Shown in pieces: positions 12,490 through 59,667 of a stretch of DNA of 64,000 bases (within the stretch, counting starts at the first letter, position 1; every line of letters begins with the position of its first letter). Position numbers and translations under genes: made by a program. The notes beneath the pieces were generated by a model. The model worked only from the letters and a program-made list of their open reading frames with translations. It did not search any database and had not been told where the DNA came from. Source of the stretch: Psammoneis japonica (Eukaryota); assembly GCA_008632985.1 (NCBI GenBank), contig QPGO01000200.1, forward strand, positions 1-64,000. The letters run 5' to 3'.

Positions 12490-12491
12490 AG

Positions 12492-17299: not shown

Positions 17300-20200
17300 G
17301 CCAAATTGCAAATCACATGCAAGTTTCGCACGTGCGCAAAGAGCCTTCGTTCGCTCTACGGTGCGCACGGGCAACACAACCATAACATCTTCTCCCTTCC
17401 AGACAATCAACAGCAAGCACAAAACCAGGAGCACAGTGACAATGCAACCACGATGTCATTGAGCACCCAGCAGAGAGAACGACGGTGCAAGCAGTTCTCA
17501 ACATCCAACATTGGGGCAATGCCATGCTTTCAACCACAACCTCTGCATGCACTGTGGCAGTGGCTGCCTTGGACTTGGGACAGAATCAAGCCCATTGCAT
17601 TTGGTGGCCACGGGAAAGACAAGAGAGCACCCATCTGACAGGGTGATGTGGCATTGGAGATGTTGCTGGCAAGATCTGGACCTTTTCTTTCATCAATTTG
17701 AATGACATGAAAACTGTTGTGCACAAGTGCTCCAAGGACATGTGGTGCACCGCTCTCATGCTCACACTTCGCTGCACTCCATTTTCAAAGGCAATGGCAT
17801 CTGGGATCAATGTCTTTTTGTGTCAGTGCCAAGGCTGCTTTTACAATCCACCTCAAATCACTTGAGCAAAGACTGAGGTTCTTGGATTGACATGAGGGTG
17901 CACAGCCTGCCAATCTGGGCAGCCACATGAGTCCCCTGGCAACCAGAAGCTGCCGTTGGGGAGACTCCCATGCTCACATGGAATGGCTGATGGTGTCTGC
18001 AAACTCAGATGAATTTTGAATTTGCCTCATGTGTTGAATCATGCAATTGAGACTTTTGTGGCAGCATTGATGCGCACATGTCCCAGAGGCCAGCAGACTT
18101 TGCACAGGCACTCCAAAAGCTCATCACATTTGCAGCATTCTCAGGACATCATGGTCAACAGGGTGCTGAGCATTGAGTGGAAATGCAGAGCCATGATGGC
18201 AGAAAAACACTGCATTGATTTGTGACTTTCATTTGCTGACACACACAAGACAGTGCTTGCGGCACTCCTCAGCACTGTTGCAGGTGTTTTGCTTTTGACA
18301 AGCTGTGTCATCCAACATGCAAGCAGCAACACAACAAACAACAAAGAGCACACATTGCAGCATGCATCTGCTGGCCAACACAGCAAGACTGTGCACAGAC
18401 CTCTTGTGCACAACAGCACAGCACTGTTCAAATGTCTGGTGGAGCATCTGTGCACGCACACAGCATCAGCACATTGTCTGCCCCACAGTGGCAGTGCAGC
18501 ACGACATGATGACATCACTCATGGAAAACACATGATGGCCTGATTTGCACATCCACAACACAAACAGCATGGTGCAAAACACAAATGAGTGGAAATTTGA
18601 TGTGATTCCCCACTTGCACAACCCCACTTTTTCCAGAGCAAACCAGTTCACAATTTTCACAACAGCACTTTTGCAACAACATCTGTTTCTCTTCCAAGAA
18701 AGCCACTTTATGCATCAATGCAACACAAGATTTGCCACATTGCAGATCATTGCGATGCTCAAAAAACATTCACTCAGCAAGAACAGAGCTGTCTGACACC
18801 TGTTTTGAAGTGGTGCTGGGGCTCATGCACACAACACTTGAAATCAGGATCTCAGATTTCTGGGTCATCAAGAAGCATGGGTGAACAACACCTCTGGCTG
18901 TGGTGTCTTTGTTTTTGGCTTCATTGACAGCATTGCTCCCCCAAAAAAATTGGAGCAAAGTCACTTGTTCATCGATGGAGAAGTTTGTGTTTGCTGTCAC
19001 AAATTGGGTGAACAGCTCATGCTGCTGAATGATTCCCAGTGAAATGAGCCAGCTCAGAAACAGCCTCTCACAAAATTGTTGTCAATGACAATCTTTTCAA
19101 CTGCCTTTGCTTTTTGTGCATGGCAGTGTTGCTCTCACAACTGCACAGAGAAATTCACAGAAGCTGGTGGGGCCACTCAACAGCAATGCTTGTCAACAAG
19201 TTGCTTGCAACTGTGGCTGTGCAAAGAAAAAGGAGCTGCTAAAAGCCAGGCATCAGACACACACAACAAGCTGAGCAGCTTGCCTGCTGATGAATGATGA
19301 AAACAGCCTGACACATGAGCTGAACATTCCACACTTCATCACTGGAATGTGCAGCAAATGGTGGTCACTGCATGGCTCAAAGCATGTCATCCATGGGAAC
19401 AGAACATTGCCACCAGACTGGAGCAGTGAGCCCACTGCTTGTGCATTGGCCATTGGAAGGCAATGCCCCAACTGCCTTTGATGACAAGGCAACAAAGTTT
19501 GCTGCAGCAGAGACAAGCCCAAACCTTGTAGAACATGGTGTGCAGATGAAGTGTTTGAGAGCATTTTCCCCAAAGGCAGTGCCACACCAAAAAGGTGCTG
19601 CTCAAGCACAATTTGTGCAAAAGCCCACATTGAAAGAAAAAGACTCAGGGCTGTGTCACAAGGGCCACTGAGTTGAGCAGTTGCCCAGTCTGAGGGGTTG
19701 TCTTCAAGTTGAAGATTTGAGGTTCTTAATCACAAGTGGCCAGTGTGCAAAATGCAAAGTTGTGCAGCACCACCCACAGTGGGCATGCTTGTTCAACCAA
19801 TGAGTGCCTCAGTTTGAAGCACACAGTTGAAAAGACAAAAGCCACACCAACAATGAAAAGAAAGGACAACAAAAAATTGAGTGTCATTGTCAAAGCAGCA
19901 CCAGTTCTTGACAATGTGCTCAAGACACAAAAGAGACAGAAACCTCTGAGACAAAACCAAAATCAAAGAACTGGTTGAGCTCAAGGCACTTTTTTGTCTC
20001 TGGCAGCACGAACAGCAAATCTGAAGAAGACATGTGTGCCTGAGATGATGGTCAACACATTGCAGCAACACAAGCTTTGGCAGCATGGATGGTCATTTTG
20101 ACACACAGCTGGCTCCCAACTGCAGCAAGCTTGTGTTGTGTGTGTGTGTGCCACAATCCAGGAAATGCCAAAAGTGCACAAACATGTCATGCCCACTTCA

Positions 20201-23200: not shown

Positions 23201-25500
23201 AGCTCGCCCAGCCAAATGACACACAAAAGAGCTTCCCAAGTGTGCAAAAATTGCCCAACTGGTGCTTGTCAAACAGGAGAACACCAGGACTGAGTGTGGG
23301 GCTGGTTGTTGTGCAGGACCTGCCAGAACTCTTGCTGCCCTTGCACAAATGACAAGAAATGGTGTTTTGCAAGTGTGCAAGATGGCAATTGTGTGCTGAC
23401 AGATGTGTCTGCAATCTGTGGCAGACTGCACCCTGTCATTGGCAAGACATCTGGTGCTCTGCAGCCCTTGTCATGGGGGAGCATGCAGCATGCTGGTGAC
23501 TGGGGGCACCAGCAAAAGCCTTGTGATGCAAACCTTCTGGCTGGAGGCAAAGTGGCTGCTGCACAACAGCACACACAAAAAATGTGTGCATTGCACAATG
23601 AGCCCAAATGATGGCTTGTCCTCACTTTGCAAAATGAGGGCTGCACATTTGGGTGCCCCCCACAGTTGTGCCAAGTGAGCAAAGACACTGATTGCACTCA
23701 CATCCACAACCATTTTGCATGGAAAATGACAGATGGAAAATCTGAAAAATGGGATGCTCAGAAGATTTCCATCATGCTTCTCCTGTGGCCCATGGAATTC
23801 AACATTCAATGGTGAGTGACAATCAGACATGGGGAAGCCCCAAAGCACACTCACCGAAGCTGTCTGATTTCAAGCAAAGTTCTGGAAAAGCATTTTGCAG
23901 TCAACACAAGTGCTCTTGAGCACTGTCAGTCATTCTTCACAAAGCACAGTTTTTTTTGCGAGGTGGGAAATTGTGGTCAAGTTTGACATGGAAAACATGA
24001 AGAAGATGTGGGAGGGCCAAAACCAAATGAACGGACCAACACAACAAACCTCTGTTTAAAACTTGAGCACATGACAAGTTTGTGTAACTTCCTTGGAATG
24101 TTCCAGGGGGCAACAGGAGACACTAAATTACACATGGCTTGGGCAAAAAAATCTTTTGTGCACCCCATTTCATCTGGCCATCTTCCATGCAAAATGCAGT
24201 CCATTGCAAGAAGTGCCAAAATCAACTTGGACTGAAGAGCCATTTGTTCATAAATGGGTGCAAAATTTGCTTGTGTTTGTGGGTCAAATGTGCAGCTTGT
24301 GTGCAACCACCTGTTTTGCAGTGTGAAATGTTCTGACTCAGAAATGGTCTCAACATGTTGTTGACAGCAGCTGCTTTTGTGCTTGCTGACACCTTGAATC
24401 ACGCACACATGATTTCACTTCAAAAAGTTGGGGAGCTGTGGCAAGTTCAAGCTCAACTTCACAGGCTTTTGGCATGTCAGAGCTTGGATTTGTGAGCTGT
24501 GCACAAGCTCAACAAAAACAGAGGCTTCAGATGTGCAGGGGCTCAAACCTGAAGCTTCTGAACAAAAGCCATTTTGACCTTGATGCAAACCACTGCACAT
24601 GATGCAAAAATTGTCAAAAGTCAACATGGCAGACAAAGTGCAAAAAGGATGATTGCATCAGACTCATGTGTGCTCATTTTGAGTGCTCAACAACTTGGTG
24701 CACACACAAAGGTTTAGCAGACAGAGCACAGCCAGTGCTGCATCCTGGCCGGTCAACAGCCAACAAAGCACGTTGATGGTTAAAAGCCTTGTGTGTGACT
24801 CACACTGCAACAATCAACTTGAGAGTCCAAATCCACCAGATGAAAAAGAGCTCGATGAGCTTGCTTCATCTTCTGTTGAAGCAATGGCACCACACCAAAT
24901 GGCCGACAATGTGTCCCACTCTGGCCCAGGGCATGTGAAGAGGGGAGCACTCAAAAATTGCAAGCAAACACAGGAGGGGGAGCAAGCACAAGCAGCATTT
25001 CTTCTGACACGGCAACAGCTTCACCTGCACCTCTTGTGTGCTGCAAAAGATGAGCAGTCCAAGGCAGTCAAACAAGCTTTGAAAGCAAAACTCAGTTGAT
25101 GCCAAGCAAGTCAAGTGTGAAACACAGCATGATCAACGCCGCAACCTGAGGGACAGCTGCAAACAGCAGCAGCAGAGAAAAGACACACCTTGATGGTGCG
25201 CTGCTCTGACTGGTCAACCAGGTCACCTTGAAAGGTCAAGACATGGGTTGCTTCTGGTGCCTGACAGTGCGGTCATGCACATGTGTCACCACCACCATCT
25301 CTTTCCATGATGCGAGGGACTGGAGAGAATCAAGAAGATGGTTCCTCTCCTCTGGCGTCATTTTCAAATTTGTGCCATGCGCACTGGACCGTGCCTTTCC
25401 ACTTGTCCCCTTTCAACATTGGAGCTGCGCCCCAGCCCCCAACCTCCAACGTAACACCGTGTCAAGTGGAAGTGTTTAGACCACATGCAGAGAGCTGCTC
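17300..25500. repeat. Highly degenerate TE-derived block lacking both TpA and CpG
   Basis: By eye 18301-18600 has no TA and two CG. Sequence is TG/CA-rich with only short Cys/His-rich ORFs. Confidence 0.75.
21500..22100 (+). mobile_element. Relic of Ty3/Gypsy RT-RNase H
   Basis: Recoverable fragments DAGLKV (~21552), KVKTIEQIAKPKNQK (~21663) and FNKPFEVHTVAS (~21892; canonical FxKPFxIHTDAS). Confidence 0.65.
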
Positions 25501-40949: not shown

Positions 40950-43000
40950 CCATTCAGCTTGACTTAGAGAAAACCCTGCTCAACTCACATTCCACATCTT
41001 CCTTAATCCAATCTGGGTGCAGGTTCAGATTGGTTTCCATTGAGAGCTCGACCCGCTCCTCTGCAGCGAATCGCACAAATCTGCGCTTTTTGTGGACACG
41101 AAGGATCTCGCCATGTTGAACAATCCAGGATTCGTAGTCACCCATTTCACTGGCGTGCGGAATGTCGCTCAAGATTGCAAATTCATCTTCCGTCGGCTGA
41201 ATGCGGGCAATGACATCATACAATGCAACGTCCTTGATGCTGGGCGACGAAGCGCAGAAGCAGAGCTTGTTCAACTGCATTGTGTCAATTGCCGCCACGA
41301 CGTGAGCAACCACCTCGTCACGTTTCAAACGCAGCGCCTTGCCCAACCAGTCAATGCCCTCAAGCACAAACTGGCGTCGCCGATTGAACTGCGTGCGTCT
41401 TAAAGGGGGACTGCGCAAAGCATGTGCGAATGGACACTGAGCCGGGACGAACATCGAATGGGAACCAGTGGCATGCATCCCGCTTGTCCTTATGGGTGAC
41501 AGCCAAAGAGCTGTTTTGTTCAACAGAGTTTGGATTTCATTGCACAGTGCCATTGCGCAAGTGGTGAAAAATCGCATCGTCAAACGTCAGACCCGCACGC
41601 TCCATCAGCCGAGCTTTCACATGGTGGCACTCATCCCGGAAACAAGAAAGGATGTCGGTCATGCTGCAATCCGAGAGCTTAACTCCAACCAAATTTCCTG
41701 GACTGTGAACATTGTCCATCAGTTCACAAAGGAGAGACAGTGGCTCAAATCGCTCTGTGTGCATTGCCGTGGGTGCCGACTTGGGCTTGCGAGGAATGGG
41801 AAGGTCCAGCACCGCAACGTCATCTCTCGCATCGTCGTCGCTCGCACCGTCGTCATCATTGTCTTCTTCTGCGATCTCCCCATCAGACACCTCTCGCTCT
41901 GGAACATCCACAGCTGCAACAGTGTGAAAATTGGAAACGGCAACAGGGAAAAGAGCTTTTGCCACAATGTTCTGCGAGCTCGTGTCGTTTGCAAAGGCCA
42001 CTCCACGATCCTTCTGACTCGCCAAGAAGAGAGCAATGTTCTCGCTCTGCTTCATCTGGAGCTTAATCTCCGCGTCCTTTAAAGCTTTTTCTTGGCCCCG
42101 CTTCGTTTGTTCGATCTCCGCGTCCTTTAAAGCTTTTTCCCGGTCCCGCTTCGTTTGTTCAGCCTTTCGACGGGTGGCCGCGATTCGTTGCGCTTCTGCC
42201 TTGTCCAACTTTTTCCTGTTGCAGGACTTGCGAGAGGCACGCGAGCTCTTGTTGGTAGAGCACTTCGAGCCAATCTTCTTGCCAGCCACAGTGCTTTCTC
42301 AATCGCATTGAAGTTTTTGTTGTTCCTGTCGTTGTGACAGTGAGCCGAGAGGTTATTGGCGATTGGCATCGTCGAAAGTTTTTCAAACATTTTAACAAAC
42401 AAACGTTTCACATGGTTTGTCGTTTCAGTCCCGTGTCCCGTTGTCGCTCACCCGCCACCCATTTTGAAACGTTTCCGAAACAAACAAGCGAATGCCGATC
42501 ACCATGTGCAAAAAGCGGAGAATCGTTCAACGTGCCGTCCGCCTCTAGAGTACGGTACTCGTTCCAATGAGCTCCATGGTTTGATGTTTGATGTGTTTGA
42601 TCTTGATCTTGATGCGTTTTCCGTTATTTTGATGATGGATGCCGTCAATGTGTTTATAAAAAGCCTCCAAATATGTATAAAAAGTCATTTTACTTTCTCT
42701 AAATCTGTTTTGAATGACCGGACAACACGAGAAGACCCGGAGAAAATGTCCATTTGATTTTGAACGAGTTTTCCTACCAGGTTGTCGTAGAGAAATCCGG
42801 GGCATCGAAGGAAATGTCCATCCGATCTTTTCCGATTTTGAACGAGTTTTTTCTACAGTACCGAATTGACGTAGTTCACAGGGCTTAAGTATAAATGACC
42901 ACAAAAATGTCGCATGTGTTGTCAAGTGTTTATCTATAGCCCTTACTGCCCAAATCCGATCTTTTCCGATTTTGAACGCCTTTTCCCTACCAGAAAGACG
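40950..43000 (-). mobile_element. Putative decayed DNA transposon with a TpA-depleted coding interior and subterminal repeats
   Basis: ORFs 41537-42289 and 40954-41583 are nearly Tyr-free. GATTTTGAACG..TTTT..CTAC repeated three times at ~42755, 42833 and 42967. No transposase motif recognised. Confidence 0.4.
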
Positions 43001-43238: not shown

Positions 43239-45404
43239 ATGGGACGTTATGACCCAAAGAATGACAGGCAAGTTGTTGAAAAGGACCATGCTCCAGCGAA
43301 GAGAATTCCAACAAAGAAACAAGGAAGCGGAGCCCGAGATGGTAGCTCGAGCTCGGCGCCTTCAACAGATACTGACGACAGCAGAAGCATTGAACATGAT
43401 ACGAGCATCGGGAAAAATCTACATGTCATAGCACCTGAGCAGAAGACAATGCCCTCGGTAAAAGCTCATGTTGGAGGCACTGACGAGGAATATGATGATT
43501 TTGATTCTGTACAGAACGAGGAACCAGAAATTACTGAGTCAAACCACAATACCAAGGAAATCGCTACTGCGCTTCATATGTCCAGTCTCCCGATAAAAGA
43601 TGCTGCTCATACTTGGGATCTTGCGCCTTTTCTCGTGGAGAACCTACAACGCGATGGGTATGATCATTTTTTCCCCATTCAATCATTAGTCATTCCCAAT
43701 GTCATCTCGTCAGAGCGCCACCCTCACATTCGCGCCCGTGACGTGTGTGTGGCCGCCCCAACAGGGAGCGGCAAAACATTGGCCTTCGTAATTCCTGTGT
43801 TGAATGCCCTTTCTTCACGACGAGTTAGACGACTGCGGGCTTTGGTGGTCCTGCCAAGTCGTGACTTGGGTGAGTCCCTATGATTCTCTCTTTCGTTGTA
43901 GTTTGTGCGTACAGCGTATCTCAACGATCCGACTTTTTCGGCATTAACTCACAGCGACCCAGGTGTTCAAGGTGTTTGATCGCTACACCCACGGCTCTGA
44001 TTTGCACGTAGGTCTAGCGGTAGGGCAAAGAGACTTCTCGACTGAACAGGAGGCGCTGACTGTAGGGCCCAGGGAAGTTTCCCGTTTCGATGATGTTGCA
44101 AGAGCTCGTCACCGATATTCCTTTCATCCTGGGAGTGCAGAACATGCTTTAGAGGCATTCTCCGGTGTGCCAGGGGACGAAAAATCTTTTGTGTTGCCCA
44201 GAGGCGGCAGGAGCGCGGTGGATGTGTTGGTTGCCACACCCGGGCGGTTGGTCGACCACCTTGACAAAACTCCGGGATTTACGTTACAACATTTGCGTTT
44301 TCTTGTTATCGACGAAGCAGACCGTTTAGTCAACCAAAGCTACCATAATTGGATTGATTCTGTTGTCAATGGCACGAACTCGGCTTCGGTCAGAGAATGG
44401 CATAAAGTAGAGCGCGTTTCACCCGTGCTCGATATCGCTCCCGACAAGGACTCTTTCAGTATTGACCCAATCACATGGAGACGAGGAGGCACAGAAGGTG
44501 ATAACTCTTTGTTCAGTACAAACGACAGCTATTCGTCTGTTGTAGCGTCAGTTTGTCGTCCCGTTCAGCTTCGAAAGCTTCTTTACTCGGCAACGTTGAC
44601 AAGAGATCCTCAGAAACTTGCTTCTCTTGGTCTCGTGAACCCAAAACACTTCGATGCTCACTTCATGAACAGAGATTATAATTCGACAAACCGTCAGCCG
44701 CGTCAGAGATACTCCATGCCCCCTGGACTCTCCGAGCACACAGTTGAATGCACGGCGGAACAAAAACCTCTTGTACTGCTTGCGATCGTGCTTGAATACC
44801 TGGCAAAAGGACGGAATCACGAAGATCGTAGTGGTGGCATAATTGTTGTGTTTACTTCTAGTGTTGATTCAACGCATAGACTGGTGCGTCTGTTACAACT
44901 CCTTTGGGCAGCTGCTGCTTTGGGTGCTCCGAATTCGGTCGCGGAATTTTCCAGCGCCCTGAACCAGAAACAGCGATCAAGTTTGATGAAACGCTGCAAT
45001 GCCTCTGATGGAGGTGTCTCTGTTGTTGTGTGTTCTGATGGAATGTCGCGCGGAATGGATTTGCCTTCTGTTGGCGTTGTGATTAACTACGATGTCCCCA
45101 GTTTTGCAAAAACGTACGTTCATCGATGTGGTCGAACAGCCAGGGCCGGTAAAGAGGGGACAGCGATCAGTGTCTTGAAAGGAGGTCAAGTTATCCAGTT
45201 TCAGAGAATGCGAGGTTTATTGATTTCCCTAACCGCGTAACTTCTCTCAAAGTCAAGAAAGAGCTTATTCGCGACGTAATGCCGCTTTACGGTCCATGCG
45301 TTAAAACTCTTCGAAAGGTGATCGAAACGGAAAAAAGTGGGGGGCTGGACAGCGCTTCATCCATTCCAACCCAATGGATTCCATCAGGCATTCGTCATGC
45401 TTAA
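43239..45404 (+). CDS. DBP6: DEAD-box RNA helicase DDX51/Dbp6; intron 43870-43954; apparent 1-nt frameshift near 45220
   Basis: FFPIQ Q-motif, [49 protein letters not shown]. Confidence 0.88.
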
Positions 45405-45649: not shown

Positions 45650-46520
45650 AACCATGCTGGATCTGGTGTCACAAGGGCCTTGTCCTCAGCTGCAGAGGGC
45701 TTGTACGTCGGGTCAAGAATGCGTGCGACGTCTTGGGAGCGGGCCTGTGCGATGATGGAGGTGTGCCACGTGTGCCACTGTTTGTCGGACTTGAGAAGCG
45801 CGAAGGCAAGTGGGTCACGTTTGATGCCTCATTTAAAGTCATGCATGGGATCACGTGGTTTGGGTGGCAACGAGCCAGGAGTGGGAGCAGATGGTGCTGT
45901 GCCCATGGAGAGGGACGCTGCATGCTCAGGACTAAGACGACAGTTGGTGAACTCCTCTTGTGTGAACAATTGAGGGTCATTGCTGACATCCGCGCCGCCG
46001 TGCACTTTCACCCTGTGCAGGCTAATCAACGCAGCCATCTGTGCTTTGTGGCCACGTGGCAAAGGCATTTGATTGGTTCCGTCATTGCACACAAGGGCAT
46101 CCAATTGCATCGGAGTAAAAGTGAAAAGGTCCTGATGCGAATCGGTTCCATCAATGTTGAGAGCGGAGTGCAATGGACTGTCCGCAGCTTGATTCAGAAC
46201 AGTGCCTAGAATGTGCTTGAGGCCATCAATTTGTTGTTGCCTGGTGAGAACCATGTTGCAACCAGGTGGATGTCGGAACCAGCTGGAGTCAGAGGGTGAG
46301 CTTGAAACAACTTGAAACTTGACTTGAATCTTGACTTGATGTCTTGGACTGTCTTGAGAGTCAGAAGCCGCCGGGCTGTGACACCCCGTTCACAGTGAGT
46401 GCTGAGCTTCCCATCTGGTCTGTGGAGTTGTGCCGGCACGTCTGAACCTGCAGCTGGCGATGCTTTGGGTTGCTTGAGAGTGGAGCAACGGGTTAAAAAC
46501 CCCTGCTGACAAGCCAACTG
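45650..46520 (-). mobile_element. Truncated CoDi-type Copia gag fragment
   Basis: ORF 45829-46254 continues past a TGA as DFK*GIKRDPLAFALLKSDKQWHTW...AQARSQDVARILDPTY, which resembles diatom Copia gag. Confidence 0.7.
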
Positions 46521-46675
46521 GAGGTGGACAAGACCTCCGAACCGTTCTTGTTTAATGTCGGTTGGACAACCCGATCAGGCTGGCCAAATTTGGCGCTGTG
46601 GAGGGACGAACAAATGTGGGAAATGCACCCTCGCCCCAACGCAGGCTGTGATCACGAATTGCTTCCTCTCGCAGT

Positions 46676-47054
46676 TGCAACACGCGTTGTCATGCATGTC
46701 ATGTGTGTGTGTGTGCATGTGTTGAACAAATTTATGTTCCAATCGCACGTCAATCGTGGGTTCGTACGAAGGACAGATCAATCACACAGAGTTGATCGGA
46801 TGTCGACAATCGCAAATGCGATCGCACGATGATGTTGACATCTTGCGTGTCAATGTCAATCGCATCCGGACAATCTGTTGTCCCGATCATGTTCTCAGAA
46901 AGGCCTTTTGTCTGTGGGAGCAGTGCAAAAGGTTTGGGCCATTGAGAACCCGTTCGGAGAAATCCAAAATGATTGTGCAGAAACAATTCTCACAATTTTC
47001 ACCTTTTGAACTTCGTTCTGCTTTCGTTTGCACTCATTCTTCAAGCACAGTGCA
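46676..47054 (+). repeat. Gypsy 5' LTR
   Basis: Aligns without gaps to 51458-51836. Confidence 0.95.
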
Positions 47055-47089
47055 TTGTGCATGCACACCACAGAAGGCAACTAGTTCAA

Positions 47090-48243
47090 GATGAAGCTTT
47101 CACCTCAGGCAACCAAGGCCAAGACTTCGTCAAGGCAGGAAAGAGAATCGTTCCTCAACCGTTGGAATCGAACTCCGAGCCGAAGAGCCTCAAACCGAGC
47201 CAGTGTCTCAAGATGGAGCAGTGTTTTCATCCGGAGAAGAAGGACAGTCGGACCTGCACGATCAACGTCGAGTGCTGCAAGAAACAGGGCGTTCCCAAGC
47301 ACATCGAATTTTTAAAGAGCTGCGATCAACTTCTGGTGGGCCAGAACATCAGTGAGCAAGCCGACAAGTTCCGTCTCATGCATGTGTTGTTACAAGGAGA
47401 CGCTCTACGTGCTTTTGAGAATGCAGCGGCAAACATTGAAGATGAATCTGCGGAAGGAAGCTTCAAGAAATGCCCACAGCACCTCACAAAACATGTGTTT
47501 CCCAAGAACGCACTTTCGGTTCAGAAACGTCATCTACGTCGCGATCTCAAGAAGCCCGAGTCCATGAAAGTGCGCGAGATTGCTGCTTGGGTCCAGGAAG
47601 TTAACGAAGACCTCAAGTTCCATCCTCCCTTTGGAAAGGATCAGAAGATCGAGGAGGACGAGCTCAAGGACATCCTCTTCAATCTTGCACCTCGAAAGTG
47701 GCAGCGCCAGTCGACCGTCCAGGGTTTCGAAATTTTGAAACATGCCTGCGACAAGTTGGTTGAGTTTTTGGAGCGCCTGGAGGTCGCTGAGGATGCACTC
47801 GATGGCATTCATGCCAAGGCTGATCCCAGCAGCAGTGCTGGATTGAAAGCCAAGAGTGGTTCCCAACGTGGTTCCAAAAATGGTCACCAACATGGCACCA
47901 AAAATCTCAGTCCACAAGTGGTGCATTCTTGCAAAAATCCACTCACAATGCGGACAAGTGCTGGTCGACTAAAAGACTTGCAAAAGAATGCCGTGGGAAC
48001 TGTGAACCCGACCCAAAATGGCGCCATTCAAATGGCAATCGCATGTGGTCTCGTCGCGATAACAACAACGCCACTCGCAAAGAAGAGTTGAATGCTGTGG
48101 CAGTCCAAGCAGTTCAAAAATTGCTCAAAGCGAGTTCTTTGAACAATCGTGAAAAGCGCAAGAGCAAAGATTGTGACTCTGACACCCTTGACGAGGAGAA
48201 TTGTCAGTTTGAAAAATTGACGCGCAGCGATTCTGAGGAATGA
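47090..48243 (+). pseudogene. Gypsy gag remnant
   Basis: Lies within Tyr-free ORF 46973-48091 (LLQGDALRAFE, VFPKNALSVQKRHLRR, VEFLERLE). Confidence 0.8.
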
Positions 48244-48329
48244 CTTGCACCACAAGAGGAGTCTTGCGCACTGCTGGACATCAGGAAGCCCAGAAAAAGG
48301 GCCAAGATGACTCACACTGGTCCAGTTGT

Positions 48330-51300
48330 CATCGCTTGTATGAACACTTCTCCAGGTAAAGCGAAAAACTAGCCTCTGCGCGTTCTCCTTGACAGCAGAA
48401 CATCGTCAACCACAATTTTGCGCAAATTCACGCGGAAACTCAGAACCAAAGCATCCGCCACCAAACTCTGGGAAACCAAAGGAGGGCTCTTTACCACTGA
48501 CAGTCAATGTAAAATCCAGTTCTCCTGCCCGAATTTGACAAACACAAGATGATCGAAACAACGGTGTGTGTTGACAGCTCCTCTTCTTCTTCAAGTCATC
48601 ACGATGTGATCATGGGACGTGACTTAATGTCGAGTCTTGGGACAATGTAGACTTCTCGAACAAAGAGATCAAATGGGAAGATGCAGCTGCTCCTATGAAG
48701 AATGTTGATGCACTCTTCGATGCCGATGTTTTTAAGTTGATTGCCGATCACATTGAGGAATCTCGTGCAGCGATCAGTCTCAATGACAGGGTCAATCGGA
48801 TCCTTGACTCAGACTGTCATGCCACAAACCTCACAATGTGACAGCAGCAGCTGCTCATCTAACTCCTGAAGAGCAGAAGCAGCTGAACTTCCTTTTAAAA
48901 AGATTTGAAAATCCTTTTGATGGTTCTCCAGGCAAATGGACCGGGAAGCCAGTGGATTTAAAGTTGAATCGGGCGTGAGTCCGCATCATGCCAAACCATT
49001 TCCCGTGCCACAAGCCTTGGAGGCGACTGCTCGTAAAGAGGTTGAAAGACCATGCAGGTTAAAAGTTTTAAGAAAAACAAATTGCTCTGAATGGGCCACT
49101 CCAACTTTCGTTCAACCCAAGAAAAATGGTCGAGTTTGATTTCCACCCAACTTTCGTGAGCTGAACAAGAGGTTGATGCACACTCCGTTTCCTCTGCCCA
49201 ACTTTCAGGACATGCTGCAGAAACTTGAAGGTTTCATGATTGCAACGTCCCTGGATTTAAATGTGGGATGCCATCATGTCAAGCTGACGCTGCACGCACG
49301 TCGTTTGTGCACGATTGTCATGCCTTGGGGCAAGTCTGAGCACTGTAGACTCCCTGTCGGAATCTGTGGAGCTCCAGACATTTTCCAAGAGCACATGAGT
49401 GAGCTCATGGCAGGTCTGGAGTTCGTCAGAACTTGCATTGACGACACATTGTGCCTTGCAAAAGGTGATTTTCAAGACCACCTCAAGAAGCTTGAGATGG
49501 TGTTTTCTCACCTAGAACAAGCTGGATTGAAGGTCAATGCCAAAAAGTCTTTTTTCGCTAAACCCGAAGTGGGCTGTCTGGGCTTCCACATCACTTGCAA
49601 TGGCATCAGCCCAATTCCAAAAAAGGTAGAAGCGATTCATGCGATCGCAACTCCTGAAACTTGGGAGGAATTACGACGCTTTGTTGGTGTGATCAACTGC
49701 TGTCGAGACATGTGGCCTTGACGATCTCATGTTTTAGCTCCTTCAGCCAAACTCACTTCAACACAAGTGAAGTGGCAATGGACCGAAACAGAACAAAAAG
49801 CCTTCGAAAATGTGAAGCGCATAATTTCCAAGATGTGTTGCTGTCATGTCCGAATTTCAATGTGCCCTTTGAGATGCACACTGATGCGAGCAATTCTCAA
49901 TTGGGGGCAGTCATTGCGCAGAAGAACCAACCAATTGCCTTCTGCAGCCACAAGCTGAATGGAGTGCAGACGCGTTGTGCTGCAACAGAAAAAGAACTGT
50001 TGTCCACAGTGGAGATCAAAGGAGTTCCGAAATGTGCTGTTTGGCCAACAGACAAACATGTGCGCGGATCACAAAAATCTCACACACAAAAATTTCACAA
50101 CGGACAGAGTCATGCGTTGCGTCTGACAACAGAAGAACACAGTCCTAAAATGATGTGCCTTGAGGGCAAGGCGAATGTTGTCGCAGATGCGATCAGCCGA
50201 CTTGCTGTGAAAAAAAACAGAACCTGTGAAAACCCTCAGCACAGAAGAGTTGGCTGAGAAGGTCCTGCCAAAATCCCGTGACAATGTCTTTCCGTTAAAT
50301 TGTGAAGTTCTTGATCATGAACAAAAACGGAACAAAGACATTCTCTCCAAATTGTCAAATGAGACATTTCACATGAAGACTTTTCGTGGAGGCGAGCGAG
50401 ACCGGTTGCTCACATGTCACAAGGAAAAAATCATCGTCCCAAGACGTTACAAAAAGCAGTGACAGATTGGCATCATGCGCACCTTCTTCACCCTGGCATA
50501 AATCAAACAGAAGAACAATCTCACAACACCTGTGGTGGTCCACCTTGCGTGAAGACATACGAAAATGCGTGTCAAGATGTGAGACATGCCAGAAATTCAA
50601 AAAGAAACATGAGAAATGTGGTCATTTACCTCCCAAGTGTGCAGAATCAGTGCCATGGGAACGACTGTGTGTGGATCCCATTGGGCCATGCAAAATGCGT
50701 CACAAGAGAGAGAAAGAACCCCCAGTCCTGAAATGTTTGACAATGATTGATCCGGCAACCAGATGGTTTGAAGTTGTGGAAATCCAAAAAGGAATCCACA
50801 ACTGCAGCCGGATTGTTAGAACGAACATGGTTGGGTAGACATCCTTGGCCATCGTCAATCACATGTGACCGTGGAAGTGAGTTCATCGGACACCAGTTTA
50901 AAGACATGGTGCAAGAGGATTGTGGCATTGAAGTCAAGCCTGCCAACTGCACGAAATCCACAAGCAAACGCAATTGTTGAACTCGCACATCAAGTGCTCG
51001 GAAATGACCCGTGCACTTGATTTGCAGCACACACCTCTGGATGCTGAGGATCCCTTTGCTGGAACATTGTCAGCAGCAGCTTTTGCTGTGCGTTCTGCAC
51101 ATCATGCTGCCACACAAGCTGCACCTGGACAATTGGTTTCAACAGGGACATGACATTCGACGTCCAACATGTCGCAGACTGGAAATTAATCCAGCAGCGA
51201 AAACAAGAAATCACAAATGAAAATGACGCTCGAGAGAATGCTCAACGTGCTCCTCACACGCACAGAGTGGGAGAGAAAATGCCACTCAAAAAAGACTCGC

Positions 51301-51431
51301 AGAAATTAGAACAGCCCCATGTTGGACTGCATGCAATGACAACGGCACATGCCAATGGCACAGCACAGATCAAACGCGGCAACGTCATTGACGCTGTCAA
51401 CATTCGTCGGACAATGCCGTTTAATGACTGA
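48330..51431 (+). pseudogene. Gypsy pol (PR-RT-RH-IN), fragmented
   Basis: ORFs 48936-49139, 49173-49721, 49661-50257, 50386-50838, 50747-50980 and 51150-51431. Confidence 0.92.
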
Positions 51432-51457
51432 CTCTAATGTGCAATTGGGGAGGCGAA

Positions 51458-51836
51458 TGCAATGTGCGTTGTCATGCACATTGTGCATGTGCACATCTGC
51501 ATGTCAAATAAATTTGCGCTCCAATCGTGCGTCAATCGTGGGTTCGTACAAAGGACAGATCAATCACACAGAGTTGGTCGGATGACGAGAATCGCAAATG
51601 CGATCGTACGATGATGTTGACATCTTGCGTGTCAATGTCAATCGCATCCGGACAATCTGTTGTCCCGATCATGTTCTCCGAAAGGCCTTTTGTCTGCAGG
51701 AGCAGTGCAAAAGGTTTGGGCCATTGAGAACCCATTCGGAAAAATCCAAAATGATTGCGCAGAAATGACTCTCACAATTTTCACTTTTTGAACTTCGCTC
51801 TACTTTCGTTTGCACTCGTTCTTCGAGCACAGTGCA
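51458..51836 (+). repeat. Gypsy 3' LTR
   Basis: Direct repeat of 46676-47054, directly after the PPT. Confidence 0.95.
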
Positions 51837-52654
51837 CAGTTGTCCTCGTGGACCCTGCAGGACTGCAGAAGACCAGCAATCCGGTGCAGATGCGAGGCGG
51901 CAGACTTGGCGTGCGCAGAGCAGAGCCAGAGTTGGGGATTTGTGTCGTGTGTGTGTGAACGCATTCGGGTGCATTGGCAGGATCCGCTGCAAGGAATCCG
52001 GAATCTCAGATGTCTGAGAATTTAGGAATTCCCAGCCAAACAAACATCCGTTGAAAACAAGTGTGTCCAACGATGGGAGGTGTCGGATGAATCCAAACGT
52101 GTGGATTTAATCCAGCACTCAGCAGTGAAGAAGGCAGATGTGTGCTTCCACCGCCAACCGTGCGCATCATCGAAAATTTCTCGATGACGATGATGAACGC
52201 TCAATGGACAACAAAGAGCAAGACCGCCAATCTGACAGAAAATGAAGACAACTGGGTGGAAGAAAACAACAACTCCTCACTGCTGTCTGAGCAGCAGATG
52301 AGTCTCCGTGCAGAGACCATTGCAGGAGCCGAAAGACTGGTGTCGTGACATCGGTGCTGCTGTTGTCATTCTTGTGAGCTCTGTGGCTCGAAAGCAAACT
52401 ACATCGCGCGACGCGCGCGGAACTGAGAGCACACATGATTGTGTGTGACAAACTAAAATCTTGTTCAAATCCTGTCAGCGCGAAAGTGCAGCGTGGTTTT
52501 GTGCTGTCCTCAACAATCGACCAAGCCGGTCATTTGACACCTGACCTGACCCAACAAGTTAAAGCAGGCTTTGATGATTGTGTCTGGCGGTTGGACAGTG
52601 TTAAACAACCTGAGGTGGCTTTCATAAGACAACCAGCAAGAGGACACATTTTTG

Positions 52655-53260: not shown

Positions 53261-53599
53261 TAATCAGGGTACTGCATCTACAGCATCGCGAAACCCATGC
53301 AGTTTTGAAGTTCACGCGGTCAAAATCTACGGTGCAGCATGCAACAGGTTCAAGGTGTGCACGGAAATTCTTCCTCCAGGCCAGCTGTCTCACATTGACA
53401 GTTTCAAGTTGAGCGTCTTGTTGCAGAAAAACTTGTTGTTTCTCTCTCTCCTCTCTCTTTGATGCACTGCATGAAGATTTGCTTCTTGAAAGCCGTGCTT
53501 GGCTTTCTCTGTGTCCCTGCCTTTTGGGCGGATGCAAAGCTCCAGTGTGAACATCGGGGCCCAGGTTTCGGCAGCCACAATCCAAAGGCACGCGCTTGC

Positions 53600-56500
53600 A
53601 GCTTGACGTGCAAGTTGGATCCCTGCGGCAAGTGAAGTCAAGACAAAAATCGACAGGTGATCCATTCATGTGGCATGTGATGGCATCAACATGGACAGCA
53701 TCTCAAAGTCCATTTTGTTCTCTTTCCCTTTTGCTTTTGCTCTTTCAACTCCATCCTTCTCAAGGTCCAAAAGGGCTGCGAGATGCCGCCTCGTTCATCA
53801 CAGACGAGTTGGCACCAATGTCCATGTTGGTCTGCTCATTGGGTGATGAAGAAAGCGGGAACATCTTGAATCTTTACAACTTGCTCATGGTTGTTAGAGG
53901 CATTGCTGTGAACAACCCCTTCTGTGCAATTCGCTCCGACTGCTTCACCGTTTGCACCATCATCAGGCCGATCGATGTAATTTCGAACATCGTGAGGAAA
54001 GTGAGAAAGGCAAGTGCTCTCCTTGTGTCTCATTGTGCCTGTGAGACGCGTCTCCACACTGTTCACACACATCAATTGTTGCCACTTGTTTCCTTCGTTC
54101 TGACAATGATTGGCTTCAGGTTCCAGTCCTCAAAACGAGGGCGGAAAAGATTGAAAAAGGATGGAAACCAGCCAGTTTGGTCAACAAGTTGGACAAAAAA
54201 CTGGAGGAAAAGTGCAAGCAGTTCAGTGGTTTCAAGGGCAGAATCGTCGACAAAATCCTGGGTGTGCTGGCCAAACTCATTTGCTGCTGCAAGCTTGCAG
54301 AGCCTTTTCTCACCAACTTGTGTGCGACTCCCTCTGTGAAACAAACAATGACATTGCTGTCTTCAAACGCTTTGCGGATGTAAGTTTCTTGTGTGATCCC
54401 CCGCAGACTTTTTTGCTGTGACATCTCTCTCACGCTCTTTCCCCATTGTCTGTGCAGCTTTTCAAGTGAAGAATTCGGAAGAAGCAGCGGGAGAGAAGTC
54501 TCTTGAGGGGCAAACCCCGAAACGGCACTGCGACAGTGGGGGATCTCATTTCGGATGAGGAAATGCACGAATCGTTCCACCACGCTCTTGCGAATGTCGA
54601 AGATCCACACGCGGCAGCCATGCTCAAGAAGTGGCACATTTTGCGTTTTGACCAAATTCGGAAGATGCCATTTGACGAAGTCCAACAAGTCCAAATGAAC
54701 ACCATGGTGAACGGCCGACGTCTGGGTCCAGTGGAAGACTTTGATGACACGGATTTGAGAGCTGTGCTTGATGCTTTGCAAGACTGGGCTGGTTCGTTCC
54801 AGGCAATGGACAAAAAGATTGGCGAGCTCAACGATCAAGTCATCATTCCAGCACAGGAGTGCATTGGGAAATTGTTTTCTGAAGATGGCATTCTCAAGAC
54901 CATTGCAAGGATTCTGGAGCCAATGCAGCCAGTCTTCAACGTTCTTGATGAGATCTCTCAGCATCTCGAGTGTCTGGCATGCCCCGATGAATTGGGCTTC
55001 ATCTGTGATCTAGACCAAATCATTGAAGACGAAGTGAAGAAATTGTCAGCGAAGGCCGGAATTGACGTCGATGCTCTCATTGATGCCTTCGTTGATGAGA
55101 TCACTGGTGCTCTAGAAGCCCTGGGAGTTCCTGCACCAGACGTCATTGATGCAAATGTCCCCAATCTGGTTGATTTGCCATCACTGGAAAACTTTGAGGC
55201 ATTCTTCCTTGCTCCGCTTGAAGCGAAACTCGAAGCGTTTGTGGCAGCTCCAAACATTGATCCACTCAAACAGCTCTTCGACCGTTCAGGAAATGTGGAT
55301 GTGACCGCAGGAACCAGCGCTTTTGAATGCTTGTGCGCATCAGTGTCCAAACAAAATGCTGTGTTGCTGGATTGTCCCAGTTCCGAGTTTCCAGTGGCGC
55401 TGAATGCAAAGAGGCAAACGGCCGTTTGCGAATGTGACGAATTCTCTTCAAGGGTTGTTGCCCCTTGCGGAACTGATGGGTCCCGGAGCTCCTGCGACAT
55501 TGACGGTGCAATGCACGGCCGTTCAGACTGCAACGGTGAACCAGTGCTGCCCATCAGTGATGTCGCAGGCATTGATTCCTCGCAAGATTTGCTCAGAGTG
55601 TCTGCCAACTGCATTTGCGCCACTCCGACAGAATTCAAGGATTTGGGCCTCATGCCGATCTACTTCACTGAGGAAGACCCCAATTCTCTGCAGTGCGGCC
55701 TTGGAGAGCAGATCGCTGTCTTGAAAGCGGTTGCGCGGGATCCTTGCGAAACTGGCCGGGCTGCTAACGAGAAATCTCCTTTCTTCAGAGAGTGGAATTG
55801 TTGGTGTGATCTCAGTGTCAGGTTCATGAATGACCCCCTCCCAGGCAACTCAAACTTTGAAACCATCTTCGATTTTCTTGTTGCTGTGAAAATGTCGCGT
55901 GACCAGCACCATGACGATTTGACAGAGTGTGCAAAACTCAACCAAAAAAGCTTTTTGTGGGTCATTCGGACATGAGCGAAGATTTTCCGGGCCAGTTCCA
56001 GTCCGTCTGTGCTGAGGATCAAATGGCGATCGTTCGTACAATGATTTTCTCCAAGACGGTGGCTCGAGCAACAGTTGCGACACGCATCAAGACACTCATC
56101 TCGAGTGCTTTTGTGATTTTGAGTGCCCCTCACCCGACGGTTGGGACGACTTTGATGATCCAGATTCACTGGTCAACGATTGATGACATTGGTGGTGGAG
56201 GCTGGTGGTGTGACTGGGATGAGCGGTTCTCAATTACGGCGGCAGCCTTTGGCAATCTGGCAGGTTTTTGGGAAAAAGGAAGAAACAGAGCTGCAGACAT
56301 TCTTGCCGATGCCCTGAGTTTTGAAGCAGAGTGTCTTGAGATTCTTCAGGAAGAATGCGATGGAGAGCAGCAGTGTGACCTTGTCAACTCAAATCAGTTG
56401 CTTGATTGTTTCGCGAGCTGCCAAACCAGTTCAGGGAACACCGTCCCATTGCAAAACACGAGATTTCTTGTTCGTGTTTCTTGGATGGTCGGGACATCTC

Positions 56501-58373
56501 AACGCCTGGGAAAAATCTTTTCATTGCAGTTGGTTTTCGAGATGCTGCTGCAAGCAGCATGACTTTGGAATGCCCAGAGTTTGGTGTCACAAACGTCCTT
56601 TCAGCGGAGGCAGGTGACGGAGGTTTTACCAACAAAGTGAACTTGGATTGCAGGGGCCAGACGGACAGAACTCTGTCGTCATCGACAACAACACTTTGGG
56701 AGTCACCACCAGCGCATTTGCATTGAGTGCGAATGCATTTGTGAGGCTCCCAAGATCCCTCTGTTGGTCTACAACAAGGACACGTCTACTTTCAGCTGCG
56801 ATCCATGCAAAAAGGGAACGCATTGGGATGCCAGCATGGCAGACTGTGAAGCATGTCCCCCTGGAACTTTTTGGACTTGGATTCCGGCGCGTCAAGTTGC
56901 ACGAATTGCCTTGCTGGGAGCGTCAGCCGGATGCGGATTCTCAACCTGCATCGACTGCTCTCCAGGGACATGCAACCCTTCGGACAGTCAAACCGAGGAA
57001 AAAGCTTGCCTTCCTTGCCCTGTGAACCGGTTCAACACTGATGCAGGAAAGGATTCCTGCGGGCCGTGTCCTGCAGGGTCTGAAGCACCCTCGGAGGGTG
57101 GCACAGCATGTGCCAAAGTCGCGAGGGTTTCTTCTCTTTCAAGGGGGAGTCCGCTGAACCATGTCACCTGGTGCTTGCAGCAATGCTGAAGGGGCACCTG
57201 ACAGGTGCGTGGACTGTCCAGAAGGGTCATTCGCAGCCAACGAGGAAGCGAAAATTGTGAGCGTGCCCAATCGACACATGCGCGGATGGCAGGGAATGTG
57301 AGCATCCAGTGGCAGGAAACCAGGGACAGTGGATGCCATGGTGTCAGTCTGGTCATGACTGTACTTGATGAGCTCGTCGGAGTGTGGCAGTGGGGATGTG
57401 GACTGGGCAATCTGGAATGCGACGCAATGTTGGAGAGCCGCATTGGTCAGCTTGGAAATGGCATGCAACAAAGGTGGTGGATGGAATGCGGAACAATGCG
57501 GGTGCGATGGGGGAGATTGCTGTCCTCACACATGGCATGCTTTGGATCGCTGCTGTCGACTTGTCACGCCATCTTTCTTCGAGAATCTGGTGCCAATCCA
57601 TTCTTTATGCGTGTTTTTCACCAGCACGATCCCTGATGATTTTGATCCAATGTGACAGGTGTTGGCACATTGGAAAATCTTTGTTCCTGGAGCACTTGCA
57701 ATTGTCTTGATCCAAGGCATGCGGTGACGCCGTGCAGCATTGACAGGGAAGAACTGTGCTCTGAGACCGGTGTCACACCAAATCAGTTCCTCCAGCTTGT
57801 TTGGATCGCCCTCTGACGGCTTCTGTGACTCTGAACTCAACACCAAAGAATTCAATTTTGATGGAGGTGATTGTTGTCTTGGAACTTGTGTCAAAACCAC
57901 TGGCAGGTGGACAACGGTCTGGCATTTCTTCCTCTGCTTTATCATTTCATGCCACTCATTGGATTTCTCACGTTTCTTTTGACTTTCAGATCCGGCATCA
58001 TGCGAAGAGATCCCATGCACGTGTCTGGCTCCAATGCCAATGCCTTCAAACATGCCATCAATGGAGCCCAGTGCTCAACCCAGTGCAGAACCCAGTGACC
58101 AACCCAGTGAATGCCAAGCTCCCAACCCAGTGTAGAGCCAGGTGCACGTGCTCACCTCATGGTTCTCGAGGTGGAAGAGCTTGTCACCGCTGGCACTCTC
58201 CGGCCAACAAGAGTGCAAACATCATCAAGAAACTGGAAAATTCAGCCAAATTTGTCGACCAGGGCAACTGCAGCAGTGCCATTGTTCAGATGGACATTTT
58301 CAAGAAGAATCTGCTCAAGAACGTGACTCCAAGTGAAGCAAAGAGTTTGATTGAGACTGCCAACAACAATTGA
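53600..58373 (+). pseudogene. Large multidomain Cys-rich extracellular protein gene (GCC2_GCC3/TNFR-like repeats, LNR/Notch repeats, PS-rich stalk), inactivated
   Basis: CEACPPGT, CLPCPVNRFN..GKDSCGPCPAG, CDA..N..QCGCDGGDCC, DGFCDSELNT..FNFDGGDCC, PSNMPSMEPSAQPS. The 490-aa ORF 54503-55975 has a single Tyr; many frameshifts. Confidence 0.7.
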
Positions 58374-59667
58374 TCAGCTGACTTCTTTTTGAATTGAGCT
58401 GGGCCTGCGGGAAATGGCAAATTTTGCCAAATTGTTGGATGAACACTGGAAGCATCATTTTTGTACAGTTCGCCATTTTTTTTTGACGGGGACATGCAAT
58501 GATGCGAAGTGAAAAGTGCTGATGTCAACACCCCTTTTTCTGAAGACAAACTTGTGTTTTCGGGGAAAGTTGCCCATCATTGGTGATTCAAAAAGCACAG
58601 AAACACAGCGACCTTTTCAAAAACATTCATGTTCTGAACGCCCAACAACACAAAAAACAGCCTTGCCCAGGGAAATCGAGCACAGCAGCAGCAAAGTCCT
58701 CAGGAATGTTCATGACCATGCAATTCGTCAATCTTCAAGCCTTGAGAAGAGCTGGCACACCAGCTCATCTCCTTTCTTGCGCAAACATCTGCTTGCCCAC
58801 AACAGAAACAACGCAGTCGTGGTCTCAGAACATCTCCGTCTGCAGCTTTGTCAGGCCCCGCAGCAGGGTCAGAGGACATCTCGCAGGATGTTCTCTGCTT
58901 TTTGCTTGTTGTGCAGCCAAGACAAGTCCTCGACACACCAGCCAGGGAACATGGTTCACATCGACTTCATTTGCATCATTCTTGGATGTGGGGCCTGCTG
59001 CTTGCCCAGTGCAGCAGCAATGTGGTCATGGTCCAGATCCCAGAGTCATGAGTGCAAATGCCTGCCAACCCACGACAGCACTCTCAAGGTTGTGGCCTGT
59101 TCCAGCTCCAGGTGATCTGCTTTTCATCACTCGAGAGGCCGATTTTCTGTGCAGTTCAGTGCAATTAACTCCTTCAATTTTGATCGTTTCGAAAATCGAA
59201 AGGTGAGTGTACACCCGAAAATGCATGCAAAGTGTGCACCTGCCCTTCGATTTGGCAAAAACGGACTTGGAAAAAGTCAATTGCGCCAAATGCACAAATT
59301 TCCAAATGATGGGAATCGAACCCGCGCGGAGCACCTGGAGCTGGAACAGGCCTTGTCGTTTGCAACAATGAATCATCTGGCATCAATGACAGAGCTGCTT
59401 AGAGATGAAGTCCAATTTTATGATTGGGCACCGGCATGGAGCAACGATGACGTGCTACACAGGCGGCTGTGCTCCAAAAATCTGTTAGTCTGTCCATCAC
59501 TCCGTCATTGGGCTGCCAATTTACAGTAGGGCCCTATTTCGACTTTCGACTTTCGACAAGCTTTTTCGACACATGACAAAAACAACTGACACAATGAGGA
59601 TCGACGGGACGCAAACTCCGTAGGTGTTTCTTTTATAAGGCTTACCATATCATACTTACAGCTCGCA

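Follow-up and report, generated by a model that had tools for sequence, protein, structure and literature searches.

Mutation-based silencing has long been seen as a fungal property (repeat-induced point mutation, RIP), complemented by animal deaminases that act during reverse transcription. A different signature was described in the main text of a 2026 preprint on mutation-accumulation lines of the chlorarachniophyte Bigelowiella natans, where two integrated viral regions received 231 of the 302 point mutations of the nuclear genome; A>G and T>C made up 230 of these 231, and the GC-biased ones were all located on TpA according to the authors (Mettrop et al., bioRxiv 10.64898/2026.01.13.699255). 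In the same text, rates close to 6e-7 per site and generation, approximately 1000-fold above background, were given for some lines only, TpA-poor coding sequences were enriched for reverse transcriptase and DDE domains, and an ADAT2-like adenine deaminase with a role in defence was proposed (bioRxiv 10.64898/2026.01.13.699255). Full-text literature searches returned no account of TpA>TpG/CpA hypermutation for diatoms or other stramenopiles, and this preprint was the sole report of the signature that they yielded. Here, the first 64,000 nucleotides of contig QPGO01000200.1 of the diatom Psammoneis japonica (assembly GCA_008632985.1; this whole stretch is referred to as the window) were analysed, centred on a Ty3/Gypsy long terminal repeat (LTR) retrotransposon at positions 46676-51836. 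A post-integration process in repeat or foreign DNA has very probably turned nearly every TA into TG or CA in this diatom. The change ran from TA towards TG and CA, targeted TpA on both strands after integration, was confined to distinct blocks and depended on the flanking bases.

Loss of tyrosine codons from a Ty3/Gypsy element

The features of the element, all on the plus strand, were as follows:

46676-51836: Ty3/Gypsy LTR retrotransposon (LTR pair, target duplication, reverse transcriptase-RNase H-integrase)
46672-46675: target-site duplication CAGT, 5' copy (sequence reading; repeated directly after the 3' LTR)
46676-47054: 5' LTR, 379 nt, TG...CA ends (blastn self-match, alignment, boundary reading)
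46973-48091: Gag-like open frame, Tyr-free, stop to stop, starting within the LTR and lying upstream of pol (open reading frame (ORF) list)
48283-48966: upstream pol region (protease side), shifted frames (tblastn pieces of relatives P0004, P0006 and P0029 in frames 1, 2 and 3)
48957-49721: reverse transcriptase, YIDD now CIDD (TGC at 49434; RVT_1, E 7.5e-15)
49790-50017: RNase H domain, frame change at approximately 49829 (RT_RNaseH_2, E 1e-15; tblastn frame change)
50512-50938: integrase, split over two frames (H2C2 zinc domain: Integrase_H2C2, E 4.9e-8; catalytic core: rve, E 0.0056; tblastn to the integrase of relatives)
51447-51457: putative polypurine tract just before the 3' LTR (GGGGAGG..., a purine run in the sequence)
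51458-51836: 3' LTR, 379 nt (blastn self-match, alignment, boundaries)
51837-51840: target-site duplication CAGT, 3' copy (sequence reading)

This copy is a dead, otherwise ordinary member of the Gypsy group. Its two LTRs were 88.8% identical by blastn self-comparison, the Pfam domains of pol followed the order RVT_1, RT_RNaseH_2, Integrase_H2C2 and rve (the last a weak match, below the Pfam cut-off), and a full-length relative (P0004) could be aligned over 48519-51428 by tblastn. No Pfam family matched the Gag-like frame, and no tRNA-complementary primer-binding site was recognisable after 47054, although no comparison with tRNAs was made. The pol region was split over three frames with at least five frame changes. 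Single nucleotides were privately deleted at 48966 and 50513; at these two places an extra A was present in most other copies (in the public DNA run X1, see below). In-frame TGA stops derived from CpG were located at 49137 and 49719, both of them conserved Arg positions. There was no Tyr in the 1,121 amino acids of the element's frames.

The original prediction, made from the DNA letters of this region, had listed conserved pol motifs that appeared to be altered by mutation of TpA. Three-frame translation and a codon table recovered every listed motif reading in its place: GCHH (from 49266), CIDD (49434), CLGF (49575), NCCRDMW (49695), LSCP (49841), FEMHTDAS (49868), AFCS (49937), TRC (49970), KCGHLP (50614), VDPIGPC (50671), RHPWP (50837), TCDRGSEF (50861) and DCGI (50918). 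One detail was wrong, in that a CTA to CCA change had been claimed for VDPIGPC, where the Pro codon is CCC. An all-against-all HMMER search supplied 18 intact relatives for a first assessment of ancestral states. Tyr was found in 16 and 17 of the 18 for the two positions of GYYH, in 16 of 18 for YIDD, 18 of 18 for YLG, and 14 and 15 of 18 for NYY, and with fewer relatives it was present in TRY (9/9), RYPWP (6/6) and DYGI (3/3); Ile was present in FEIxTDAS in 8 of 11. LSYP was ambiguous in this set (F 6, Y 5) but had Tyr in 59 of 61 relatives of the closer set, and the ancestral state was weak or ambiguous for AFYS (F 5, Y 4, W 1), KYGHLP (Y 3/5), VDLIGPY (L 2/5, Y 2/5) and TYDRGSEF (H 2, Y 2, I 1, C 1).

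The main test set consisted of 71 long relatives with normal Tyr content and a reverse transcriptase identity of 60-66%; columns with at least 80% agreement among at least half of the 71 were treated as conserved (411 columns). The YIDD Tyr was present in 71/71. At 21 conserved Tyr columns the element had retained none, and showed 8 Cys, 6 His, 3 Phe and one each of Ile, Ser, Arg and a TGA stop, versus retention at 289 of 390 conserved columns for all non-Tyr residues (Fisher p = 2.3e-12). With the 18-relative set, Tyr was likewise retained at 0/14 columns, and Pro at 18/18, Gly at 14/15 and Phe at 12/13.

The DNA composition corresponded to this pattern. Within 46676-51836, 50 TA dinucleotides were observed versus 354.7 expected from base composition, an observed/expected ratio (O/E) of 0.141 relative to a host background of 0.626 (Poisson P = 3e-44). 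In the DNA of intact relatives, TA O/E was 0.56-1.18 in 78/78 metagenome loci, none of which was TA-depleted, and TA density was 61.7 per kb in the relatives versus 9.7 per kb in the element. The closest intact relatives thus carried Tyr rather than Cys or His at the altered positions, in DNA that was not TA-poor, and the predicted direction of change was borne out by these Tyr residues as well as, independently, by the comparison of the two LTRs given below.

The process cannot create stop codons and inactivates by missense, YIDD to CIDD being an example. It was sufficient for inactivation of the element but not the sole cause, as the CpG-derived TGA stops and the 1-nt deletions also make the copy dead.

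Timing, rate and strand choice from the LTR pair

Both LTRs of an element start out with the same sequence when it integrates, and differences between them record later events. Over 379 aligned positions there were 45 differences, of which 35 were of the TA/CG<->TG/CA type and 10 were other. Twelve dinucleotides were TG in one LTR and CA in the other, where 0.34 would be expected from CpG decay (P = 4e-15; the expectation was taken from the behaviour of the LTRs themselves, with 18 CG/CG sites and 7 sites of CG versus TG/CA). A TG|CA double implies that an ancestral TA (or CG) changed once in each LTR, on opposite strands. Four single TA sites also differed between the LTRs. Assuming equal strand choice, the ancestral number of TA was approximately 29 per LTR, a normal density at insertion, of which a fraction of approximately 0.90 had been lost; the loss of CpG was 0.16 per LTR, and divergence outside TA and CG was 2.6%. 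Expressed as events per site, TA (2.27) had changed approximately 13 times faster than CpG (0.18), and TA loss per base was approximately 86 times that of other substitutions (time-averaged), both ratios being rough lower bounds because TA loss is saturated.

Strand choice appeared random. TG and CA were equally abundant in the Gypsy block (659:650), the succession of TG and CA showed no strand clustering by runs tests in any of six blocks (z -0.65 to +1.11), and the LTR doubles switched between TG and CA within a few bases. The TA changes are therefore post-integration, DNA-level events on both strands. Eight of the 12 TG|CA doubles were situated within 27 nt of U3 (46696-46724 and 51478-51506; LTR positions 21-47), and this cluster implies that an ancestral alternating TA-rich (TATA-like) tract was erased in both LTRs.

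Confinement to blocks within the window

TA depletion was found in six blocks (no strand assigned; observed versus expected counts are given):

1-1500: block 1, running off the window start; TA 11 versus 88.3, CG 89 versus 96.1 (normal)
2960-13070: block 2, with a Copia-type element at 6034-11756 (plus strand; RVT_2, SH3_retrovirus); TA 37 versus 639, CG 179 versus 600
17390-25450: block 3, CpG also depleted; TA 24 versus 541.7, CG 42 versus 452.6
40970-42540: block 4, 1.5 kb, CpG normal; TA 12 versus 87.3, CG 104 versus 99.4
45650-52560: block 5, with the Gypsy element and the repeat DNA on its two sides (approximately 1 kb and 0.7 kb); abrupt TA thinning and return at the borders
53330-59450: block 6; TA 24 versus 374.9; Ephrin_rec_like match, E 7e-9, at 56641-57186

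In 500-bp steps, TA O/E was 0-0.2 in the six blocks and 0.4-1.0 in the intervening host genes (for block 5, 0.09-0.21 inside and 0.45-0.8 outside), with borders sharp to approximately 100-500 nt. Depletion was near saturation in the blocks (TA O/E 0.03-0.14). CG O/E was 0.75 in the Gypsy block and ranged from 0.09 to 0.75 across blocks 2, 3, 5 and 6, while blocks 1 and 4 were CpG-normal at a TA O/E near 0.13. Since CpG depletion varied (from none to O/E 0.09) and TA was close to saturation everywhere, TA loss is the faster clock. In the CpG-normal blocks, losses of 37.1 TA and 7.2 CG together balanced a gain of 43.1 TG+CA (per 1,000 trinucleotides).

The blocks (33.5 kb) contained 1,643 TGA, 166 TAA and 76 TAG triplets, versus 1,181, 573 and 601, respectively, in host DNA (30.5 kb). 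Many long open frames were present on both strands because TAA and TAG were nearly gone and mainly TGA was left, and Tyr made up 0.0-0.4% of long ORFs (blocks 2, 4, 5 and 6 sampled) versus 2.7% in host ORFs; the value for block 2 was 0.3% of 1,509 amino acids.

The terminal repeats of the Copia-type element (5180-5774 and 12312-12900) each consisted of a unique segment of approximately 200 nt and tandem units of approximately 190 nt. The order of these two parts was reversed from one end of the element to the other, an arrangement not seen in ordinary LTRs. No recognisable transposable element domain (Pfam) was found in blocks 3, 4 and 6, and nothing usable was obtained for blocks 1, 3, 4 and 6 from Pfam at E <=0.5 or from two ESM-Atlas look-ups. 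In block 3, TG and CA were each near twice the expectation, and the block is presumably the oldest repeat in the window. Block 4 contained two long minus-strand ORFs of no known family and formed an island with normal host genes on either side; should it be single-copy, repetition would not be the basis of targeting. Block 6, of approximately 6 kb, had besides Ephrin_rec_like only a weak SUEL-lectin match (55915-56559, E 0.011), with Tyr at 0.2% of 1,582 amino acids in its ORFs. It possibly represents a viral gene or a duplicated host gene that was hypermutated; the range of targets would then be wider. Block 1 contained two diverged direct repeats of approximately 170 nt (74% identical, at 222-790). 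The window is nuclear diatom DNA; among the host genes, one at 43948-45240 encodes a DDX51-like helicase, for which the best named matches were from Attheya (61%) and from Thalassiosira, Cyclotella, Cyclostephanos and Stephanodiscus (50-54%).

Flank dependence and the proposed mechanism

The 167 TAs that survived in the blocks were non-randomly distributed with respect to flanking bases. Relative to host density, survival was 0.62 for TTAA, 0.30 for CTAA/TTAG, 0.16 for GTAA/TTAC, 0.13 for CTAG, 0.09 for ATAA/TTAT and for CTAC/GTAG, 0.06 for GTAC, 0.02 for ATAC/GTAT, 0.01 for ATAG/CTAT and 0 for ATAT, and the order was the same against an intact-relative baseline. By our own arithmetic, multiplying a half-site term for one strand by an independent one for the other comes close to these ratios, where the base 5' of T determines each term (survival A < G < C << T). 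A trinucleotide gain/loss table alone cannot tell which base was changed, and a test of tetranucleotide classes was used instead: at half-protected sites, TTGB/VCAA products gained 2 to 3.4 times more than TCAB/VTGA products in 4/4 comparisons. On the strand that carries the A, this amounts to an order of preference of T-A-T > T-A-C > T-A-G >> T-A-A. Conserved Tyr codons after T had become Cys in 3/3 cases, and the other Tyr codons had become Cys in 6 and His in 6.

In the most probable account, a Ty3/Gypsy copy integrated with normal TA content, whereupon a DNA-level process limited to repeat or foreign DNA converted nearly every 5'-TA-3' through A:T>G:C transitions, either strand being changed independently and site by site, at a rate about an order of magnitude above CpG decay and roughly two orders above other substitutions in the same DNA. 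All Tyr codons (TAY) become Cys or His, ATA Ile codons Thr or Met, and CTA/TTA Leu codons Pro or Ser; TAA and TAG stops and TA-rich promoter tracts are erased, and the element is killed by missense, not nonsense. As to the chemistry, we tentatively prefer a mechanism in which adenine would be deaminated to hypoxanthine in T-A-[T>C>G>>A] on the DNA of silenced repeats by a TadA/ADAT2-like deaminase, the type of enzyme also put forward for B. natans. The natural substrate of TadA/ADAT2-type enzymes, A34, is known to be preceded by U33 in all cases, and the need for T-A could be explained in this way. Our guess is that repeats are targeted through silent chromatin or small RNAs; recognition by copy number is a further possibility.

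A somewhat unlikely alternative is that thymine is attacked, by TET/JBP-type oxidation of T in V-T-A in silenced repeats to 5-hydroxymethyluracil (5hmU) or 5-formyluracil (5fU), which mispairs with G and gives T>C; A>G would then be the same event viewed from the opposite strand. The footprint is symmetric and equally readable as [A>G>C>>T]-T-A, so that this route fits the sequence data equally well, and 5hmU at TpA is known from dinoflagellates. On the other hand, a literature search returned no report of 5hmU for diatoms, and the papers naming both concerned dinoflagellates by title.

Other copies and the reality of the sequence

The public DNA run X1 contained 0.38 of the 31-mers of the stretch compared and gave 6,458 contig pieces, with 841 at >=99% and 1,387 at 95-99% likeness to this stretch, and its word depths were in the thousands over all 30 bins of 46001-52500. 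The Gypsy family is thus highly repeated, and since the flanks (46001-46675 and 51837-52500) were also at a depth of thousands, the element sits within another high-copy repeat. Two further runs added little (X2, no contig; X3, 11 short pieces at the edges). Among the copies in X1, 572 of 652 variable places were transitions, and the best-supported 40 of the 652 differences comprised 4 TG>TA, 9 TG/CA>CG, 5 CG>TG/CA, 2 TA>TG/CA and 20 others, with no CA>TA.

In public protein collections, 5 of the 150 best representatives had Tyr at <=0.9%, with Cys and His near 5% each, and 6 of 116 near-length relatives read CIDD or HIDD. Nine other Tyr-poor public relatives showed independent Cys/His outcomes at every Tyr column, and some were partly mutated; this copy-specific mixture, together with the partly converted copies, indicates gradual accumulation, not an all-or-none event. 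The Tyr-free relatives came from several public sources (jgi, ena, lgn). Proteins P0018, P0078, P0094 and P0301 were Tyr-free, Cys/His-rich frames of this sort, and such public 'proteins' are spurious frames of TA-erased repeats.

These data bear on the possibility of a base-calling or assembly artefact, in which modified TA steps in repeats would be misread as TG or CA by a long-read caller. Such an error would mimic random strand choice, flank dependence and sharp borders, and the sequencing platform is not on record. However, if the approximately 300 TG/CA sites were miscalled TAs, with some 6% of positions wrong, no piece in X1 could exceed approximately 94% likeness, which the 841 pieces at >=99% contradict, and TG>TA would dominate the differences, which it did not. 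With Tyr-free relatives in several public sources, and CpG-type stops and frameshifts in the copy as well, an artefact is very unlikely.

Remaining alternatives and points of weakness

ADAR-like A-to-I hyperediting of the retrotransposon transcript, fixed by reverse transcription, has in its favour that ADARs prefer a 5' U, as the B. natans preprint states in its main text (bioRxiv 10.64898/2026.01.13.699255), and that retroelements have an RNA stage. Nevertheless, the LTRs, which derive from one template, differed at the 12 double and 4 single TA sites, and sense-strand T>C was as common as A>G, by conserved columns (His 6, Cys 8) as well as by dinucleotides. Differences at TA-derived sites between the LTRs and changes on both strands exclude editing before reverse transcription as their source, and flanking non-Gypsy DNA and blocks with no recognisable retroelement were also affected, which makes RNA editing highly improbable. 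A native composition, with a transposable element lineage that avoids TA, for example to escape a TA-directed defence, and a copy that is merely old, is equally improbable: most of the remaining TAs lay in TTAA, a pattern that could likewise result from selection on a motif, but all 78 loci of intact relatives were at a TA O/E of at least 0.56, catalytic and structural Tyr residues had been lost, the LTRs were TA-rich at insertion (approximately 29 per 379 nt), and the signature was common to unrelated elements (Copia, unknown blocks). Ordinary ageing by CpG deamination and neutral drift, with no TA-specific process, can be dismissed almost entirely, since CpG decay is real in the block (CG O/E 0.75; conserved Arg changed to TGA, His, Cys and Gln; 7 CG versus TG/CA differences between the LTRs) but does not explain the excess of TG|CA doubles, the low TA of the CpG-normal blocks 1 and 4, or the complete loss of conserved Tyr at a non-TA, non-CG LTR divergence of only 2.6%.

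Several observations weigh against the view that a TpA-directed process acted on repeat DNA, or limit how far it can be taken. The original prediction had expected TA-derived substitutions to dominate; at the 122 changed conserved columns, the TA-derived one-step changes (Tyr>Cys/His, Ile(ATA)>Thr/Met, Leu>Pro/Ser, Val>Ala and changes in A-initial codons after T) were the largest single class of one-step change but only 29 in number and no majority, next to 16 CpG-type changes, 11 other transitions, 27 transversions and 39 multi-step changes, several of the last lying in 49911-49998, where the choice of reading frame is doubtful. Much of the non-TA change is ordinary divergence, the relatives being only approximately 60% identical. 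In the footprint, the Tyr-codon comparison agrees with a refractory T-A-A but is not significant alone, and of six half-protected sites that could be resolved individually, 4 fit and 2 break this rule; the baselines used were compositional (host DNA, or relatives approximately 55-60% identical) and not a family consensus. The TA changes were deduced from end states, and the deaminase step is putative. Only the block at 45650-52560 is high-copy by data, block 2 being called a repeat from its transposable element domains and blocks 1, 3, 4 and 6 being putative repeats, and run X1 may be the assembly's own sample.

Comparison with known systems

Like RIP in ascomycete fungi, the process is a DNA-level, both-strand, dinucleotide-specific production of transitions that ruins repeats and spares host genes. 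The polarity is opposite, in that RIP makes TpA from CpA. RIP is indicated by a high TpA/ApT and a low (CpA+TpG)/(ApC+GpT); the values here (0.157 and 1.60, respectively) were the reverse. RIP also creates stops and lowers GC, whereas the process in the window removes TAA and TAG, and the element has kept the GC level of its host (0.47, relative to 0.46-0.47 in host DNA). It is conceivable, though we put this forward with some doubt, that diatoms run a mirror image of RIP as a genome defence, in which a TpA-directed activity (a DNA adenine deaminase or equivalent) acts on repeat or foreign DNA to saturation. In fungi, RIP is set off by sequence duplication ahead of meiosis and depends on a RID-type methyltransferase. 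A RID-related DNMT4 of unknown function has been noted in many diatoms (PMC9998398).

In animals, APOBEC3 and ADAR share with the present case a deaminase-type, context-specific hypermutation that inactivates retroelement copies, but act on cDNA or RNA during retrotransposition and strand-specifically (G>A or A>G), whereas the changes in the Gypsy element arose post-integration and on both strands. CpG decay of methylated transposons, which runs in parallel here, likewise converts a palindromic dinucleotide to TG or CA by transitions in silenced repeats; the differences are the target (TpA), the direction (AT>GC) and the approximately 13-fold higher rate per site in the LTRs.

The diatom retrotransposon case extends TpA hypermutation to a second major lineage and a second target class, with LTR pairs giving the timing and the trinucleotide footprint offering a test for candidate enzymes. 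It accounts for long, TGA-only open frames mis-annotated as Tyr-free proteins, and TA O/E versus CA+TG O/E is a simple statistic with which protist genomes can be scanned to map the defence. Base editing could also profit from a natural activity that turns A into G in DNA with specificity for T-A. If diatoms do possess such a defence, the system is possibly ancient and widespread in the stramenopile-alveolate-rhizarian (SAR) group, since the same signature has been caught active in a chlorarachniophyte, and it may have a part in forming the repeat landscapes, and the spurious Tyr-free ORFs, in the genomes and metagenomes of many marine protists.

The closest likeness is to B. natans, as far as the main text of the preprint describes it. 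Shared features are A>G/T>C change at TpA, giving TpG or CpA depending on the strand (deduced here from end states), sharply bounded regions of foreign DNA within an otherwise normal nuclear genome, and long-term TpA depletion with a gain of CpA and TpG. The host differs, being a rhizarian with integrated nucleocytoplasmic large DNA virus (NCLDV) and virophage DNA in that case and a stramenopile diatom in this one. The main target there was a single-copy, silent viral insert, and here it is high-copy LTR retrotransposons and other repeat blocks; depletion reached a rho of 0.45 in the NCLDV region, versus near saturation here (TA O/E 0.03-0.14). The main text of the preprint does not deal with flanking bases, retrotransposons or diatoms, nor with the sparing of TTAA or a timing by LTRs. 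The process described here belongs to a kind of presumed genome defence that is rare and came to light only recently; both the lineage and the target class are new for it.

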